A DNA stretch of 43,156 nt from a virus (taxonomy: Duplodnaviria > Heunggongvirae > Uroviricota > Caudoviricetes): IMG/VR virus record IMGVR_UViG_2802429223_000002. One strand, written 5' to 3'. Positions 23,416-30,851 of this stretch are shown here, one piece after another. The translations under genes and the position numbers were made by a program. How positions within the stretch are numbered: position 1 is the first letter of the stretch; every line of letters begins with the position of its first letter. The notes beneath the pieces were generated by a model. That model saw nothing but the letters and a program-made list of their open reading frames with translations. It did no database searches and was not told the origin of the DNA.

Positions 23416-23633
23416 CAGAACCTCGCCAGCCGGTACCCGGGATGCCCCCGTCGTCGTGTAATCAGAGCCGCAAGGCGGCGCTCCCACTCCTGCCGTCCCT
23501 GCCGGATCTCAGATAAGTTTTCCATGGTCATCTGCTGACCATTAAAGGTGACGGATTTTCCGTCCAGCACCGCCATTTCAGCTTCCATATAACGCTGAAT
23601 CATGGCTTCGATATCATTCTGGTTCATAACCAT
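23415..23633 (-). CDS. W: head-tail joining protein W (gpW family)
   Basis: 72 aa; C-terminal ...RRRGHPGYRLARF resembles lambda W C-terminus; canonical position between terminase large subunit and portal. Confidence 0.7.
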   Translation of the reverse strand: MVMNQNDIEAMIQRYMEAEMAVLDGKSVTFNGQQMTMENLSEIRQGRQEWERRLAALITRRRGHPGYRLARF

Positions 23634-25726
23634 CCTCCGGAAGTCAGCCAGGGGTTAACATCGTCAGTTACTGTTTTCTTCCGTTTTTGTTTTTTAACAG
23701 GCGTGGATACCGGTTCCGGTGAGGATGACGGTTCGGTACTGTCCTGGACACACTCCAGCCAGGTTTCCCGGCTCGCCCACTCCGGTGCATCCGGCCAGCG
23801 GATCTTTTCGTATCCATGCAGAATGACCAGAGCCTCGGCATACACCATCAGGTCAAAAGCTTCGTTGGCACCGCGACCCGGCTTACTCCATTTCCCGTCA
23901 CTGCTCCGCTCTTCATACGTCAGTTCGTCGTAAAACCAGCTCCCCAGCCAGTCAGGGAAATGCACATAGCCGGGACCTGGCGAGTCACGCCATAACGCGT
24001 TATTCACCCGGTCTTTCAGTGCATCCGTCTGAAGAAGCCAGAGCGGCACATCACCTGCGGCCTGCGCCCGTCGGCCCGTTCGTCCGGTGTTATCAGGGAA
24101 TGTACGGGTGATCAGTTTTGCGCGCCGGATGCTGTCGCCCTTAAACAGGTAAATACGTTTACCAAGGCCATCACGACGGCAACGACGCCAGAATTTATAG
24201 GCATTATCAGTGACCCCGTCTTCACCGCCGGAGTCCACCGCCATTGCCATCAGTCGCATTTGTTGAGAAGGATCGGAGGCCAGCGGCCAGCTTTTATGAA
24301 AAACATCCGTCAGCAGGACATCCCAGTCTTCCGGATAGCTGGCCGGATCAATTCGCTGGCTCTCCCCGTCGCTGTCACCGCGCAATGACTGCGTGATGTT
24401 GTAACGATCAATAATCCAGCGTTCGCCACGGCTGCCATAGCCCGTTACCTGAACCACAAAACGGCGATGACGTCCCGCCTGCACATCCACTGTCGCCACA
24501 AGGAAATTAACGCCATCCGGCACACTGCGGGAAGGAACTGGCTCTGCCCGCTGCTCAAGCAGTTCACTTTTTCGTTGCTCCATGCTGGCGCGGGGAAGAT
24601 AAGGTAATCCCCAGTCGGTATTGATAACCGTCTTGAGTGTTTCTTCACTTCCGGTTGTCTCGTATTCCTGTTCTGCAGTAAGCAGTTTGTAAACGAGTTG
24701 CGAGAGTGTCTGGTAAGCAGCTGCCGGACCCTCCATCCAGAATGACGCAATACGTGAGCGTCGGGGATCACCATAACGACTGCCATCCGCATTGATGGAT
24801 TCACCATCCCGCAACCAGACCCCACGTCCGTTCAGCTCACGTTTGTGTTCAGGCATAATCCGTCCTGAACAGGAAGGACACTGAATATAAGCCGCCTCAC
24901 TTGCCAGCACGGGATCGGCAATATCACGGAAACCAGCAACCACATCGCCGCAGGGCTGAAAATACTCACCACAGTGTGGACAGGGCCAGTACCAGCGACG
25001 GCGATCACCACGGTTATAGAGCGACAGGATCCCCGTGGTTGGTGGAGCCTCATGCGGTGAAGTCCGTCGCCATTTCACATCCTTCACATCCCTGCCGGGG
25101 GAACTCTCCACCAACGTCATACCGCTGGACATAAATGTGGTGGTACGTTTTGAGGCAAGAGAGAAGGCATCCCCCTCGCCATCAATATCTTCCGGAAAAC
25201 GGTCATAATCCGTCAGCGCGACGCATTTATAATCTGATGAGGACATGATATTGACTGACGGCCAGCCGATTTTCAGGTAGTTGCCAGCAAGGAATGTTCT
25301 GTCATAAACGTTGTTGTCATTTTTGTTCGGACTCAGGCGACTGACCACTTCCGGGCTGACGCGAAACGTTCTGGCGAGTCGTTTTTTGGAGTGTTCGCGG
25401 GCTTTTTCCTCCGTCATCTGAATAATCAGCATATCAGCAGGATCGCAAATCACGTTGTAAATCACCCAACCGTCAATCAGGCCGATAGTCTTGCCGGTTC
25501 GTGCCGGGCCAACAAATATCACTGCGTCGTATTCACGCGAGGCCAGGCAGTTCATCGGCTCAATAACATACGGTGCCACCAGCGGATCCCACGGGACTGA
25601 GTTCCCGGCCCCCATGGGCACCCGCATATACTGAGCAACGGCATCAGCAACCCGCATTCGTCTCGGTGCGCGAAGGATATAACCTGAATCGGTTCGTGCT
25701 GCCTTTGCGGTTTCCTGATTCAGCAT
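23624..25726 (-). CDS. terminase large subunit (GpA family)
   Basis: 700 aa; Walker A-like GPARTGKT; size and position as lambda A. Confidence 0.9.
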   Translation of the reverse strand: MLNQETAKAARTDSGYILRAPRRMRVADAVAQYMRVPMGAGNSVPWDPLVAPYVIEPMNCLASREYDAVIFVGPARTGKTIGLIDGWVIYNVICDPADMLIIQMTEEKAREHSKKRLARTFRVSPEVVSRLSPNKNDNNVYDRTFLAGNYLKIGWPSVNIMSSSDYKCVALTDYDRFPEDIDGEGDAFSLASKRTTTFMSSGMTLVESSPGRDVKDVKWRRTSPHEAPPTTGILSLYNRGDRRRWYWPCPHCGEYFQPCGDVVAGFRDIADPVLASEAAYIQCPSCSGRIMPEHKRELNGRGVWLRDGESINADGSRYGDPRRSRIASFWMEGPAAAYQTLSQLVYKLLTAEQEYETTGSEETLKTVINTDWGLPYLPRASMEQRKSELLEQRAEPVPSRSVPDGVNFLVATVDVQAGRHRRFVVQVTGYGSRGERWIIDRYNITQSLRGDSDGESQRIDPASYPEDWDVLLTDVFHKSWPLASDPSQQMRLMAMAVDSGGEDGVTDNAYKFWRRCRRDGLGKRIYLFKGDSIRRAKLITRTFPDNTGRTGRRAQAAGDVPLWLLQTDALKDRVNNALWRDSPGPGYVHFPDWLGSWFYDELTYEERSSDGKWSKPGRGANEAFDLMVYAEALVILHGYEKIRWPDAPEWASRETWLECVQDSTEPSSSPEPVSTPVKKQKRKKTVTDDVNPWLTSGGWL

Positions 25727-26220
25727 TACTCCTCCTGCTGTAATTCCTCCTCATCATCCGCACCTGCTTCAGTCACCCGCAGGGCTATCTGATCGCGCAG
25801 ATCATCAATAATGGACTGAACACGGCTCACAGCGGCAGGCTGCAGACCGCAGTCACGTTCAAGAATATCCGGTAATGTCTCCAGCACCTGCACGACCGCT
25901 TTTGCCCAGATGGCAAACTCCCGTCTGACATCACTGGCCGGAATGAGTTGTGCCGTTTCCTGTTCGAACTTAAGACGCTCACGTTCAGACTGATACCAGG
26001 CTTTGCGCTCATGCGCGTCCATTTCGCCTTCTGCAACCGGCGGTGGTAATGCCAGAAATGCCGACACAATATCAACCACCCGATAAAGCTTGAGGTTGCT
26101 TTCATGCCCCCCTGCAACGGGTAGATTTTGCAGCCTTGCCGCAGCAGTCTGGCGATGTACACCTGACAGTGCCGCCAGTTGACTGATATTAAGCGTCAGA
26201 TTTTTTAACTCTCGATCCAT
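25726..26220 (-). CDS. terminase small subunit (Nu1-like)
   Basis: 164 aa, N-terminal HTH-like region and acidic C-terminus; immediately upstream of and overlapping the large subunit start. Confidence 0.75.
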   Translation of the reverse strand: MDRELKNLTLNISQLAALSGVHRQTAAARLQNLPVAGGHESNLKLYRVVDIVSAFLALPPPVAEGEMDAHERKAWYQSERERLKFEQETAQLIPASDVRREFAIWAKAVVQVLETLPDILERDCGLQPAAVSRVQSIIDDLRDQIALRVTEAGADDEEELQQEE

Positions 26221-26384
26221 ACCCGCTCCAGAATGTTTTAAACATGCATCTTGCGAACAACTTTAGGCAAACGGTGTTAGTGATGAACAAAAAACAATCA
26301 AAATCGACACTACAAAAATAAAACCACTGTAATATCAATCTATTACAGTAGTGGTGATGACGAATGAAATTTCAAAAACTAGCC

Positions 26385-26415
26385 TTTTTCCGCGACGCTC
26401 CCGCCCCGTGAGAGC
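26385..26415 (-). other. putative cos site (cosN-like)
   Basis: Minus-strand reading GGGGCGGGAGCGTCGCGGAAAAAG resembles lambda cosN GGGCGGCGACCTCGCGGGTTTTCG; located about 180 nt upstream of the small terminase start, as in lambda. Confidence 0.4.
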
Positions 26416-26554
26416 TCAGGTCATCAGAAGGACCCACATTAAAGGCAGAATATTCACTCTGATATTACGCATTGTTTTGCTTTTGTAGATTCGCAATTTA
26501 CGGTAAAAATACTTTTGCTATTTCTTCGTACCATAAATGCACAGGAGTATCTTC

Positions 26555-26875
26555 ATGTCCATAAAGGTATTCAGAAGTGACCTTCAGACTGAGAGTGAAT
26601 CAGACTATCGTAATTGGCTTGGCGATAATCCAGACGGATATGTTGTCAATGCATTGAAGCGAACCAGAGGTAAAGGTAATAAATCTGACGAACGCTTTAC
26701 CAGAATCCATAGAGCATCTTGCAAAACGATTAATCCCTTGAAACGCAAGATCGATAAAACAGGATTCACAACTGGAGATTATCAAAAAATATGCTCAACC
26801 AACTTCCTCAATGTTGAAAATGAAGCAAAGAAAATGACAGGTCTGACAAGCATCATCAAATGTCGATGCATCTAA
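26555..26875 (+). CDS. hypothetical protein (AT-rich moron candidate)
   Basis: 106 aa from ATG 26555 with AGGAG SD; opposite strand to the late genes; no family recognised. Confidence 0.5.
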   Translation: MSIKVFRSDLQTESESDYRNWLGDNPDGYVVNALKRTRGKGNKSDERFTRIHRASCKTINPLKRKIDKTGFTTGDYQKICSTNFLNVENEAKKMTGLTSIIKCRCI

Positions 26876-27092
26876 AGCGTCATGTAATTAACATGTTCAC
26901 AACACTCTCCGGGTGACCGCTAATGCTGTTGTCAGCCAAAAACTCTACGTTTCGATTATGCCAATTTTGCACCGCCCGATGCCGATAAATGCGAAAATCC
27001 GGCGACTATGTAGCGTAATCAAATCAACGAGATACCACTTTCATGAAATAATTATCATCTGTCAGTTCAATATCAATGTTGAGAGAGAATAA

Positions 27093-27245
27093 ATGAGAGG
27101 AATGCCAAGAGGAAGTCGAGGACAGAGGGCTGTCCAATCAACTGCAAGAAGAGCAAGACGATCAAATGCCAGCCATTCTGACCAATTAGGATGCCTGGCA
27201 CTAATCATCGTTGGCCTGATATTTATCTATTTCATGGCTAATTAG
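27093..27245 (+). CDS. possible small membrane protein (50 aa, Arg-rich N-terminus, C-terminal TM helix)
   Basis: MRGMPRGSRGQRAVQSTARRARRSNASHSDQLGCLALIIVGLIFIYFMAN; many rare AGA/AGG/CGA codons; below ORF-track size cutoff. Confidence 0.25.
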   Translation: MRGMPRGSRGQRAVQSTARRARRSNASHSDQLGCLALIIVGLIFIYFMAN

Positions 27246-27255
27246 CAAAGATTGC

Positions 27256-27699
27256 TCATCTTACACACTGCGTGCGAATGTATTGCTGCAAGCCTCGGAT
27301 CATTTTATCACTGGTTTCAATCCGCTTTCTAAGGGTGAAATAATCCCGTTGAGCGGTGTCAGTAAGTCTGGGGCTGGTGCCATCATCCACGCCGGAGGCG
27401 GCGGTGATTTTATGCATGTCTGGACAGACAGCTTTGACGCGCAGCCACTTACGCCCAGCAGAAACATCAGCACGAAGACTTTCGATAGTCGCGTTAGCAT
27501 CAGCAAGCTCCTTTGTGTATCTGGCGTCGAGTTCTGCTACATCACGTTGACGCTTCTGCATATCAGCGATAGTGGATGCGGCTTTGTCGCGTTGCTCTTT
27601 GTAGGCGATGGCGTTATCACGGTAATGATTAACAGCCCATAACAGGCAGACGATGATGCAGATAATCAGAGCGGAGATAATCGCGGTTACTCTGCTCAT
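27256..27699 (-). CDS. Rz: i-spanin Rz
   Basis: [34 protein letters not shown]... matches lambda Rz as recalled; start ATG 27699 abuts endolysin stop. Confidence 0.9.
27300..27506 (-). CDS. Rz1: o-spanin Rz1 (lipoprotein, embedded in Rz in another frame)
   Basis: Lipobox LLGVSGC followed by the proline-rich [24 protein letters not shown], as in lambda Rz1. Confidence 0.8.
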
Positions 27700-28193
27700 T
27701 GCTGCCCCCACAAACAGACTTCACGCTCAATCTCACGACGAGTCATCAGTCCTTTCCATTGCTTACCTCCAGCGTATGTCCAGCGACGTAGCTGATCACA
27801 TGCGCCTTTGATATCGCCATGGTTTATTTTGCGAAGAAGCGTCGATGTTCTGAAATTGCCAGCACCCACGTTGTAGACGAACGAGTAAAGAGCGCCGCGC
27901 GTTGTTTCCGGTATATCGACTTTGATGTACGGGTTAATTTGTCTGGCGACCGTGGCAAGGTCTTTATTCAGGAGGGCTTTGCATTCTGCTTCGGTATACG
28001 TTTTACCGAGCATGATGTCTTTTCCGGTGTGTCCGTGGCATACAGTCCATACACCAACAATATCTTTGTATGGTATGTAGCTGACACCTTCCAGACCATC
28101 GTTACCACTTGGGCCAGTGATTAACACTGATGCTATAGCAATTGCTCCGCCACCAATAGCAGCAGCAACTGCTTTTCGTAATGATGGAGGCAT
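27696..28193 (-). CDS. R: SAR endolysin (phage 21 R-type lysozyme)
   Basis: N-terminal signal-anchor-release segment [20 protein letters not shown] followed by lysozyme domain; matches phage 21 R as recalled. Confidence 0.9.
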
Positions 28194-28408
28194 TATTCAC
28201 CTCTCGCAGCCTTGCGCTTATCTTCTTTAATCTTGAAATAAAGGTTTGTCAGATACGTCAGCAAGCCAAATACCAGACTACCCAGCACACCTATTGCCGC
28301 CCACTGTGAGGGCGTGACTTTATCGAGCAACTGTAAAAACCAGTACCCGGCACTACCTGCTGAGGTGCCATAGGCGACACCCGTTGTTAACTTATCCATG
28401 GATTTCAT
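28193..28408 (-). CDS. S: pinholin S (phage 21 S-type) with dual-start motif
   Basis: [71 protein letters not shown]; two in-frame Met (M1, M4); GAGGTGGAG SD. Confidence 0.9.
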
Positions 28409-28446
28409 AACTCCACCTCGCAGATGCGGGTGCAAATTGAGAGAAT

Positions 28447-28478
28447 AAAAAATCCCCGACAATTCCAGATGTCAGCGG
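28447..28478 (-). terminator. possible tR'-like hairpin and U-tract just upstream of S
   Basis: Minus-strand CTGACA...TGTCGG imperfect stem followed by GGATTTTTTATT. Confidence 0.3.
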
Positions 28479-28675: not shown

Positions 28676-29224
28676 ATGGCGAACAATCTTTTTTATACAC
28701 TTGACAGGCAGCGCACACTGAAGTCAGGCATGAAAATTGAATTAGCAGAACCGTACTGCCCAATCGTTCCACTTCAGGCTCATACGAGCTCATTGTTTTC
28801 CGACGGTGTATCCCGGCATGCAAATAATCTTTTTTTCAACTACCACATAAACCTCGTCAGCTCAGACGAACGATTTGGAGCAATAATAGAAATACTACTG
28901 GAAGAACGAAGGAAATCACACTTCCCTGAAAAACCATCGCGCTTCCAATCAATTTTTGCATGTGAGTCTGTAAAAGAAACCGCCTGGTTCAGAGGCTTTT
29001 CAAAATCCCCACTTGACACCCCAATATTTCAAGTCAGCTCATCGTCGAACTATCATAGAGGTGATATGAATTTGTTAAATCTGAACTGCTCCCCAGTAGA
29101 AGTATCTCAGAGGCTGGATCTTTACTGGAAGGGTGAAACAACACAGATTTACGAAGGGTATCAACCATTCTGGGAAGTGCTCATTCCATTGCCAGTTATT
29201 ATTGGTGAAAGAATTATCGAATAA
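28676..29224 (+). CDS. hypothetical protein (Q-S island gene 1)
   Basis: 182 aa, AGGAA SD before ATG; AT-rich; antisense to the late transcript; no family recognised. Confidence 0.55.
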   Translation: MANNLFYTLDRQRTLKSGMKIELAEPYCPIVPLQAHTSSLFSDGVSRHANNLFFNYHINLVSSDERFGAIIEILLEERRKSHFPEKPSRFQSIFACESVKETAWFRGFSKSPLDTPIFQVSSSSNYHRGDMNLLNLNCSPVEVSQRLDLYWKGETTQIYEGYQPFWEVLIPLPVIIGERIIE

Positions 29225-29519
29225 TGGCTCTGACACCAGAATCATTTCCATAGCCGAACTGACGCTGACAGATTTTTAATTCGCTTATGGCTTTCTCCAT
29301 TGCTAATAGCGCGTCTTCAGTACGGTAGCAATCAACCTCAAGAACAAACGTTTTGAGATTGCTACTATCATTCCCGGCGAAAAGCGCATAGCTGGGTTGA
29401 CCAGTCTGATTCATCCCCCCCCCCTCAAACGACGAAACCCGCTCGACGGCGGGTTTAAGCCACGTGACAAAGTAACCACTCTTAACACGATACAATAGTT
29501 TTTGCGTACGCGTTAGCAT
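29214..29519 (-). CDS. hypothetical protein containing a G10 homopolymer tract (Q-S island gene 2)
   Basis: 101 aa ORF; the run of 10 C on the plus strand (29415-29424) encodes E-G-G-G; reading frame depends on tract length. Confidence 0.4.
   Translation of the reverse strand: MLTRTQKLLYRVKSGYFVTWLKPAVERVSSFEGGGMNQTGQPSYALFAGNDSSNLKTFVLEVDCYRTEDALLAMEKAISELKICQRQFGYGNDSGVRAIIR
29415..29424. repeat. C10/G10 homopolymer tract
   Basis: Ten consecutive C at 29415-29424 inside ORF 29214-29519. Confidence 0.95.
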
Positions 29520-29567
29520 TTTTGTTAAAGTATAAAAATGTAATTAAACCAGTATGTCATCACTACA

Positions 29568-30452
29568 ATGAAATGCATCCGAAAACATCCAGCAATAGCT
29601 TATACAGTAATTATTTTAGTTTTTGCCTTAATATACAATTTCACTTGGAGCGTCAATCCAGATTCTTTCATTAAAAACAACGTTCTCAACTCTACACCTG
29701 TATATGATGCCGTTAATTTAGCATATGCGAACAATGAGGTAAAAAAAGAAGCTCCTGTCAGTGTTTCGAGGGAAGTATTTGCAGAGCAAATTTTAACACT
29801 TACAAATCAATTCAATAAGATAATAATTGAAAACTTAGAACTTGAAAAAACATTATCTCAGCAGCAAGAAAAATTAAAACAAATTAGTGAAAGACAATCA
29901 ATAAAGTGGGGCGAAAACACCAAAAAATACATAGCAGACAGTTTGAAAGATTTACACAAAACGCTTATCACTAAAAATAGTGAACGTACTGCCATAGCAT
30001 CTTTAAAAAACAAAACAAATGAAAGTCAGATTAACATTATGCTGGCCGACAAAGATGAAGAAATAGCCAAAATAAACCTTGAAATAGCGTATAAAGAGAA
30101 TGATGCTAATGTCTATATCTTATCTCATGTCGGCGACTTTAACGATCCAATAATCGTTAATGAGCTTGACGCAATCAATAAAGAAATTGAGAAAACAAGA
30201 ACAAAAATAATAAACAATAAAAAGAAAATAATGGAGATAAGGAGTAAATCTCAATCTATGCTGGAGAAACTCAAAAAAGATGACCTTAACTTTTGGGATT
30301 TCTTATTTTATAGCATAGGAATATCTACAACGACCACCTTTGGTGATTTGTTAGCAAATTCAAGACTTATCAGACTGATAGTTTGCGTGCAACTTTTACT
30401 ATCAATTATAGTTTTAGCTAACGTAACTCAAAGATTTTTATCAAAAAAATAA
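29568..30452 (+). CDS. membrane protein: N-terminal TM helix, long coiled-coil, C-terminal pore-loop-like motif (Q-S island gene 3)
   Basis: 294 aa; TM segment AIAYTVIILVFALIYNFTW; Lys/Glu-rich heptad region; C-terminus FLFYSIGISTTTTFGDL then hydrophobic helix RLIVCVQLLLSIIVLANV; very AT-rich. Confidence 0.55.
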   Translation: MKCIRKHPAIAYTVIILVFALIYNFTWSVNPDSFIKNNVLNSTPVYDAVNLAYANNEVKKEAPVSVSREVFAEQILTLTNQFNKIIIENLELEKTLSQQQEKLKQISERQSIKWGENTKKYIADSLKDLHKTLITKNSERTAIASLKNKTNESQINIMLADKDEEIAKINLEIAYKENDANVYILSHVGDFNDPIIVNELDAINKEIEKTRTKIINNKKKIMEIRSKSQSMLEKLKKDDLNFWDFLFYSIGISTTTTFGDLLANSRLIRLIVCVQLLLSIIVLANVTQRFLSKK

Positions 30453-30489: not shown

Positions 30490-30834
30490 TTAAGATAAGA
30501 ACGATAAAATCCCGTCCAAAAATCCTAGTGCAGTTTGCAATTCCTTTCTAATCGTGCCATCTGAACACCTTCTCTTCTTGGCAATAGTGCGTAATGAGAT
30601 ACCAATAACAAAGTGGGCAATTAGTAGCTCATATTCTTCTGGCTTATATTTACGCAACCTCGCCACACATCCATCAATCATAAGACCTTCATCATCATCA
30701 CACTGCATCCGGGACTTTTTGCCATGAGGTAAAAGCCCCTTGAAGCCTGCTGCTATCGGCTGCCAATCCACACTACTGTTATCTGCTGCAGCCCATGCTC
30801 CCCAGCGGTCCAAAACTTCATACATGTCACGCAT
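30490..30834 (-). CDS. late-gene antiterminator Q (QuuD / phage 82-type family)
   Basis: [35 protein letters not shown]...[20 protein letters not shown] resembles E. coli QuuD as recalled ([35 protein letters not shown]...); lies upstream of the lysis cassette. Confidence 0.85.
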   Translation of the reverse strand: [114 protein letters not shown]

Positions 30835-30851
30835 CAACTTTCTCCACAAAA

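Follow-up and report, generated by a model that had tools for sequence, protein, structure and literature searches.

The window, by which we mean the whole stretch of viral DNA analysed here (43,156 nucleotides; Caudoviricetes; IMG/VR record IMGVR_UViG_2802429223_000002), is from a lambda-like E. coli prophage and carries a small gene between its cohesive-end site and its lysis cassette. We refer to this gene as gene X and to its product as protein X (Table 1). In the ORF list, the + strand reading frame is open from 26537 to 26875, and the Shine-Dalgarno sequence was read from the DNA. The alignment of homologous loci showed GGAG at the same place in most of them. The start of every homologue aligned with ATG 26555, which is also the RefSeq/PGAP start for the identical gene of E. 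coli NT1F10 (WP_000025003.1). A preliminary description of this DNA had reported a 106-aa ORF with a good Shine-Dalgarno sequence, on the strand opposite to all late genes and in the Rz-to-cos interval. These points held: AGGAG precedes the ATG by 7 nt and PGAP calls the same CDS, terL, terS, Rz, lysozyme and holin are all on the - strand with gene X on the +, and gene X starts 149 bp inside cosN with Rz on its other side.

Table 1. Features at the gene X locus and in the neighbouring late region (positions in the window)
Feature	Position	Strand	Description
terL	23624..25726	-	Flank
terS	25726..26220	-	Terminase small subunit, DUF1441 / phrog_141 (Pfam, PHROGs)
cosN	26395..26406		Cohesive-end site, 149 bp before the start of gene X; marks the right chromosome end in the virion
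Variable cargo module	26436..27316	+	Gene X and 50-aa ORF; runs into the 3' end of Rz
Weak candidate promoter	26497..26524	+	TTTACG-16-TATTTC, TG before TATTTC; seen by eye only
Shine-Dalgarno sequence of gene X	26543..26547	+	AGGAG, 7 nt before ATG 26555
Gene X	26555..26875	+	106 aa, 12.2 kDa, pI 9.7; stand-alone copy of an unnamed His/Cys domain
50-aa ORF	27093..27245	+	Very basic N-terminus, C-terminal hydrophobic helix (MRGMPRGSRGQRAVQSTARRARRSNASHSDQLGCLALIIVGLIFIYFMAN)
Rz	27256..27711	-	Spanin ('lysis protein'), last lysis-cassette gene; embedded Rz1-like ORF (ORF list)
Lysozyme	27696..28193	-	Lysis cassette
Holin	28193..28462	-	Lysis cassette
DUF2441 protein	28676..29224	+	DUF2441 / phrog_5663; in the Q-to-holin interval
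294-aa protein	29568..30452	+	C-terminal Ion_trans_2-like pore region; DNA of about 30% GC

The reverse complement of cosN is GGGCGGGAGCGT, which resembles the cohesive end of lambda, GGGCGGCGACCT. The phage records cdtI, Tritos and mEp460_4F5 start at about 26406-26410 of the window, and similarity to phage phi458 and to the nohD-type prophage of E. coli NT1F10 (locus L001) starts or stops between 26390 and 26435. On the lysis side, the window Rz matches Rz genes of other prophages, and its homologue in L001 is annotated 'lysis protein'. Between cosN and the start of terS, the - strand holds a terminator-like inverted repeat with a 12-bp stem followed by a T-run (26323-26352), which may instead be part of cosB or a protein-binding site. 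When 26100-27400 was scanned against Rfam, STnc410 alone was returned; this candidate RNA scored 18.8 bits against a gathering score of 50 and was rejected.

We also measured base composition. GC was 0.386 in gene X and 0.395 in the cargo module, against 0.489 in the lysis genes, 0.543 in terS/terL and 0.502 in the whole window, in agreement with the lower GC than its neighbours noted at first. When 26411-27255 was shuffled with dinucleotides preserved, an ATG-initiated ORF of at least 106 aa appeared in 3.9% of the shuffles. Length alone is weak evidence for gene X (P ~0.04), and the case for it rests on conservation.

The cargo module

We compared the window with phi458. The results showed 99.3% identity over terL/terS/cos, ending at 26435 and resuming at 27317 at 85%. 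In place of the approximately 880 bp between these points (26436-27316), phi458 has 684 unrelated bp with Orf23 and Orf24, both on the late strand. Among 5426 complete E. coli genomes, the segment 26411-27255 was at least 95% identical in 54, and the flanks of the module were found in 4863 versus 54 with gene X. Only 14 of the E. coli carriers, KMi025, H1 and 21EVA among them, have the DUF1441-terS arrangement; in others, NT1F10 for example, the small terminase is of the nohD type and the breakpoint falls at cos. In 50,697 GenBank phage records, tblastn with gene X matched one Klebsiella phage only, and blastn with 26876-27316 found no match. Gene X is cargo: phage backbones that are otherwise identical differ in whether they carry it.

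Lambda carries bor in its Rz-to-cos interval, and the preliminary description drew the analogy. Gene X resembles lambda bor and other junction morons in occupying this slot antisense to the late operon, in its small size and deviating composition, and in being present or absent between similar phages. However, Bor is an outer-membrane lipoprotein, whereas protein X is basic and cytoplasmic-looking with a His/Cys set; its N-terminus (MSIKVFRSDLQTESE) is hydrophilic and has neither a signal peptide nor a Cys lipobox. Homology to Bor was rejected, as Pfam found no family for protein X at E ≤ 1. The analogy applies to position, and not to protein family or to a lipoprotein signal.

The module contains a second ORF, of 50 aa. 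Among module variants, six of its seven variable nucleotides fall at codon position 3, and dN/dS is approximately 0.07-0.15. The PGAP annotation does not include this ORF, and tblastn with it found no match in the GenBank phage records; there is one match of 53% in an IMG/VR locus (L083, 878-747). Judged by this pattern of substitution and the predicted helix, the ORF is probably a real small membrane-protein gene and a second small cargo gene. An operon with gene X is unlikely, because the ORF is found with gene X in the E. coli clade alone, and the sole distant homologue of the ORF is at a distance of about 3 kb and on the opposite strand.

Further antisense cargo was seen on the + strand at 28676-30452, between the antiterminator Q gene (30490-30849, -) and holin. 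It comprises the DUF2441 protein and the 294-aa protein. In Stx phages, this Q-to-holin interval is the slot of stx.

Conservation of gene X, its slot and its promoter

Homologues of gene X with 58-69% identity were found in Klebsiella, Raoultella, Leclercia, Citrobacter, Cedecea and Pseudescherichia. Against the Klebsiella, Raoultella and Salmonella homologues, dN/dS was 0.06-0.16; the sole pair unsaturated at synonymous sites, Klebsiella-Raoultella, gave dN 0.094 and dS 0.607, a ratio of 0.155. The CDS is intact and annotated in 54 of 54 E. coli carriers among the 5426 complete genomes. At least 1000 E. coli, Shigella and E. albertii contigs encode an identical protein, in every case named 'hypothetical protein', and a literature search for WP_000025003 found no mention of it. 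Gene X is a genuine gene, and purifying selection acts on it.

It is conceivable that gene X is a chance or decaying ORF, functionless in this prophage: its length is only marginally unusual, the window has no consensus promoter, many carriers are defective prophages, and one allele differs by four non-synonymous substitutions and a single synonymous one. The strong purifying selection across genera, the intact CDS in every E. coli carrier genome, the key residues invariant across phyla and the confident fold prediction described below all argue against this explanation, and we consider it exceedingly improbable.

Many of the E. coli carriers are heavily decayed prophages. In L001 (NT1F10, 3629345-3642189), portal, terminase, lysozyme and bet are pseudogenes, and gene X and the adjacent Rz are intact. 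Some copies of gene X may be decaying in defective prophages of this kind. Among the E. coli alleles from IMG/VR loci L036-L040, L038 and L039 carry R47C, and L040 carries G23S, A33T, R53S and I66N with one synonymous change only; R47 and R53 are otherwise conserved. These changes could reflect local relaxation or diversification, and are too few to tell which.

We then located the homologues within their phages. In Klebsiella phage ST846-OXA48phi9.2, the homologue is flanked by the lysis region and the small terminase gene, both of them on the opposite strand. The same antisense lysis-to-terS slot is occupied in a Salmonella Abortusequi prophage with an HNH + P27-terS + terL packaging module, in Raoultella and Klebsiella prophages with Terminase_2, and in Leclercia prophages. 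In IMG/VR, a gene X relative was found on 66 viral contigs, and the upstream packaging gene was recognisable in 50. The results showed that this gene is on the opposite strand in all 50 and on the same strand in none. It was Terminase_2 in 29 contigs, NohD-like in 12, DUF1441 in 7, and HNH+P27 and terL in one each, and gene X relatives lie beside at least four types of packaging module. The downstream neighbours recognised in these contigs are always opposite-strand lysis genes. These results show that the slot and the antisense orientation of gene X are conserved. The preliminary description had named the lack of a transcript and of conservation in related prophages as arguments against its own reading; on conservation, homologues were found in the same slot. 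Lambdoid prophages are known to carry lysogenic-conversion and defence cargo at the lysis-to-terminase junction, where gene X, which has never been given a name, recurs in Escherichia, Shigella, Klebsiella, Raoultella, Leclercia, Citrobacter and Salmonella.

The same lysis-to-terS interval of Raoultella and Klebsiella prophages also holds a gene of the Tad2-like (anti-Thoeris) family on the late strand. It lies at 6769-7044 of L006, with equivalents in L007-L011, about 450 bp from the gene X homologue.

The alignment further showed that approximately 70 bp upstream of gene X are conserved with the gene, whatever the terS type. A promoter scan of this region found TTGTCA-16-TATAGT in L005, TTGCCA-16-TATAGT in L043 and TTGCCA-16-CATATT in L084, each ending 30 nt before the ATG. 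These elements match the consensus at 9-10 of 12 positions, with an identical offset in three terS settings. L006 has TGtTATAAT at the corresponding place, and GC-rich hairpins lie 3' of the stop codon of the homologue in L006 and L084. In the window, a consensus scan of 26200-27300 found no + strand sigma-70 promoter, and a scan downstream of 26875 found no intrinsic terminator. The region upstream of gene X in the window aligns partially with the promoter element of the relatives and has extra bases in the spacer; the weak candidate listed in Table 1 lies in this region. As far as sequence can tell, the promoter and hairpin layout of the relatives is classic moron anatomy, and the window allele is the exception.

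Taken across these loci, the slot, orientation and promoter of the phage copies of gene X are strictly maintained beside packaging modules that are unrelated to each other, which is a new finding. The comparative part of the moron reading offered at first is borne out by the presence or absence relative to phi458, the rarity among E. coli genomes (54 of 5426), the deviating GC, the antisense slot and the promoter of the relatives. By analogy, antisense placement in a late region favours expression in the lysogen.

Such a fixed position could also point to a role within the phage itself, with gene X acting in packaging, as a factor associated with terS or cos, or as a regulator of the late-operon junction. 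Gene X always lies beside terS, often 46-51 bp from the terS start, across several packaging types, its promoter overlaps the terS start codon in Terminase_2 phages, and in one prophage it stands beside the packaging HNH. However, the upstream element accompanies gene X also in L084-L089, in which terS is at a distance of about 366 bp, gene X is antisense to the late genes, and homologues on small plasmids, in chromosomal singletons and in fusions have no terminase nearby. A packaging role is unlikely, since phi458 and mEp460, the nearest relatives with this terS, terL and cos, lack gene X. We rate an internal role of any of these kinds as very unlikely.

Protein X and the family of its domain

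Protein X is strongly basic (pI 9.66, net charge about +8.6). Searches against Pfam, NCBIfam and PADLOC (PADLOC-DB v2) found no family at E ≤ 1, and the best PHROGs match was phrog_3622 at E = 0.32. We predicted its structure with AF2, which gave a confident model (pLDDT 87.9, pTM 0.81). A structure search, which had been proposed as a check, found no match to this model in PDB or BFVD, and no DNA-binding fold was recognised in it. Neither the sequence nor the predicted fold showed similarity to the readers SRA, PUA/EVE/ASCH/YTH, DUF3427, NEco or winged helix.

To describe residue conservation, we aligned 76 members of the family with a mean identity of 26%. The residues W21, G28, H52, K78 and C103 are invariant, and F6, Y18, V30, N32, C56, T72, Y76, C80 and C105 are at least 90% conserved. 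The resulting pattern, H-x3-C ... C ... C-x(1,2)-C, suggests a structural zinc site; we propose zinc binding because of the conserved His/Cys set (H52, C56, C80, C103 and C105).

A profile built from 23 close homologues matched 244 cluster representatives at E ≤ 1e-3 in a collection of 1.84 billion proteins, and a broader profile of the family matched 488 clusters. The members come from Enterobacterales, Chloroflexota, Planctomycetota, Actinomycetota and Acidobacteriota; named genomes (GTDB) include Citrobacter, Cedecea, Brenneria, Anaerolineales, Planctomycetaceae, Micromonospora, Binatia and Pyrinomonadaceae. In the majority of members, the domain stands alone in a protein of about 95-110 aa. 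Gene X had first been described as an orphan, which proved incorrect: it belongs to a large unnamed family spanning several phyla, whose domain is also part of larger proteins. The accompanying remark that no family was recognised is accurate for Pfam, NCBIfam and PADLOC, and not for the profile, with its 244 matching representatives. The proposed homology search likewise gave a wide family by profile and no named one. The existence of this family is new: Pfam has no entry for it, and neither PDB nor BFVD contains a match to the model.

We scanned 50 longer members of the family against Pfam. The results showed 25 HNH-type matches (HNH 15, HNH_2 8, HNH_5 2), which may overlap and so represent up to 25 members. 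Other partners were NOV_C, of the PD-(D/E)xK type, in two members, and a protein kinase, a YgjP-like peptidase, HTH_3 and DUF6998 in one each. Fourteen of the 50 fusions match mREase_IV, a McrA-like model of PADLOC. This model has 277 positions, which agrees with the length of E. coli McrA. The X domain is usually N-terminal in the fusions. In one fusion, it is followed by a sub-threshold DUF3427-like region and then by HNH. In the kinase fusion (P0139), a PD-T4-6-like kinase (PADLOC) precedes a C-terminal X domain. This recurrent joining of the X domain to effector domains, McrA-like HNH among them, is also new. In a metagenomic protein of 340 aa (P0031), the X domain is present as three tandem copies behind an N-terminal transmembrane helix.

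The nearest nuclease fusion to protein X is a cassette-array protein of Vibrio alginolyticus (WP_242014617.1), which has an X-like N-terminus and an mREase_IV HNH (E = 4e-25). It is 40% identical to protein X over 90 aa (E = 1.4e-12), and no X-nuclease fusion was found in Enterobacteriaceae. Protein X has no HNH according to Pfam, NCBIfam and PADLOC. When the Vibrio fusion was searched against the window with tblastn, its N-terminal part alone matched (26606-26860), and there was no HNH remnant near gene X. A decayed X-HNH fusion in the window was rejected on this result.

We also inspected the neighbours of stand-alone members. One has an N6/N4 methyltransferase gene beside it at a prophage end, one has NotI and a methyltransferase, and one has HTH_3 upstream and YefM/YoeB with HSDR_N downstream. 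Homologues with 48% identity are carried on 4.5-kb Col156/MOBQ plasmids of Salmonella and E. coli, directly downstream of mobA. Several stand-alone members are singletons between housekeeping genes, without defence neighbours, and one close homologue overlaps a downstream ABM-like gene (sub-threshold). No conserved partner gene was found; the neighbours of stand-alone homologues differ in every context examined.

These partners and neighbours bear on whether the domain acts on nucleic acid at all. The X domain may be a regulatory or protein-binding module instead of a DNA reader, given the DUF3427-like region in one fusion. In its full form, this explanation holds that protein X is a zinc-stabilised protein-binding or regulatory module without a nucleic-acid role, a sensor or adaptor acting on a host or phage protein, with lysogenic conversion as the outcome. 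The mixed partners are consistent with it: a kinase, a YgjP-like peptidase, a possible AAA ATPase that scored under the curated cut-off, a transmembrane helix that anchors three tandem repeats, and HTH. So are the sub-threshold DUF3427-like region between X and HNH, the singletons between housekeeping genes, and the close homologue that overlaps the ABM-like gene. However, nuclease partners dominate (NOV_C and, in the 50 fusions, 25 HNH-type matches), methyltransferase or restriction genes repeatedly adjoin stand-alone members, and protein X is strongly basic. We regard this explanation as doubtful.

Possible roles in phage-host conflict

The architecture of the fusions can be compared with that of Type IV restriction enzymes. 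These are modular, modification-dependent enzymes, with examples in EcoKMcrA, SRA-HNH, EVE-HNH (VcaM4I) and DUF3427/PUA-HNH (PMC6182155, PMC4333417, PMC7897488, PMC6765204). A literature search on the architectures of Type IV enzymes found known reader domains only. Many members of the X family share the plan of an N-terminal non-catalytic part and a C-terminal McrA-like HNH, whereas protein X corresponds to the non-catalytic part and lacks the nuclease domain. A second parallel is found in single-domain EVE proteins, which are stand-alone readers of modified bases (PMC7641849). The X domain is likewise found both fused to nucleases and, more often, as a stand-alone protein of about 100 aa scattered over genomes and mobile elements; unlike EVE-like readers, it has an unrelated fold with a conserved His/Cys set. 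PD-T4-6 Ser/Thr-kinase defence offers a weaker comparison: P0139 is the single example of the family with a kinase, and protein X has none.

We put forward, as a plausible but tentative general model, that gene X acts in conflict between phages, hosts and mobile elements through recognition of DNA. Gene X is a self-contained moron at the lysis-to-cos/terS junction, and would be transcribed against the late operon. Its product is a stand-alone copy of the non-catalytic end of McrA-type HNH nucleases, PD-(D/E)xK nucleases and a PD-T4-6-like kinase. Most likely, it would attach to DNA or to some DNA feature, for instance a modification, and make no cut. Supplied from a resident prophage or plasmid, protein X would then interfere with incoming or competing DNA, or with the restriction of DNA, and gene X would be a single-gene player in phage-host or phage-phage conflict. 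The nucleic-acid binding, the lysogen expression and the conflict role with its direction are inferred.

Several findings agree with this model, namely the nuclease fusions, the methyltransferase and restriction neighbours, the basic pI and the conserved His/Cys set. Against it stand the lack of a consensus promoter or terminator and the diverged upstream region in the window allele, the allele changes R47C and R53S, the singletons without defence neighbours, the model structure without a DNA-binding fold, and the absence of a PADLOC model.

A more specific form of the model, which we think rather unlikely to be right in all its parts, assigns a function to the whole family. The X family would be an undescribed and widespread zinc-binding reader of DNA, with a fold that resembles no solved structure and possibly specific for a modification, that provides the specificity of Type IV-like HNH and PD-(D/E)xK nucleases, and captured copies without a nuclease would serve as shields or decoys. 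Phages and small plasmids of Enterobacteriaceae would hold such nuclease-less copies, the phage ones in a fixed slot on the terminase side. These copies could exclude foreign DNA without cleavage, or block nucleases that use the same reader.

The direction of the conflict could also be reversed. Protein X would then be a counter-defence decoy, made on entry from its own promoter before antisense late transcription sets in, that competes with or poisons host nucleases or kinases using the same domain. The right end of the lambda chromosome is held in the tail and injected first, and gene X lies 149 bp from this end in cos phages. The domain is the non-catalytic part of restriction-like HNH nucleases, homologues are cargo on mobilisable Col156 plasmids, and a Tad2-like anti-defence gene stands beside the slot in Raoultella prophages. 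Both the presence of homologues on small mobilisable plasmids and, in cos phages, the location of gene X at the end injected first are compatible with a counter-defence role. The argument from injection order applies to cos phages only, and fails for many headful (Terminase_2) phages that carry gene X. In addition, Enterobacteriaceae yielded no X-nuclease fusion, and the known anti-restriction genes of lambdoid phages lie in early operons, whereas an antisense position in the late region is more typical of lysogen expression. On balance, we consider a decoy made on entry rather unlikely.

If the X domain reads a feature of DNA, it would be a new specificity module for modification-dependent restriction, and gene X would offer a one-gene system for the effect of a nuclease-less reader on exclusion or anti-restriction. 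Should gene X have no measurable effect, it would simply add to the conserved prophage genes without an assigned function.

One further arrangement was seen in a Chloroflexi MAG (L015, 5001-5848). The stand-alone homologue there lies beside an AAA_15/NurA pair and a PIN/UPF0175 toxin-antitoxin pair. A protein of 180 aa, encoded 5 bp 3' of the homologue, has a sub-threshold match to an OGG-like DNA glycosylase. The two genes could represent a two-gene form, in which the X domain is combined with a DNA-acting effector in trans.
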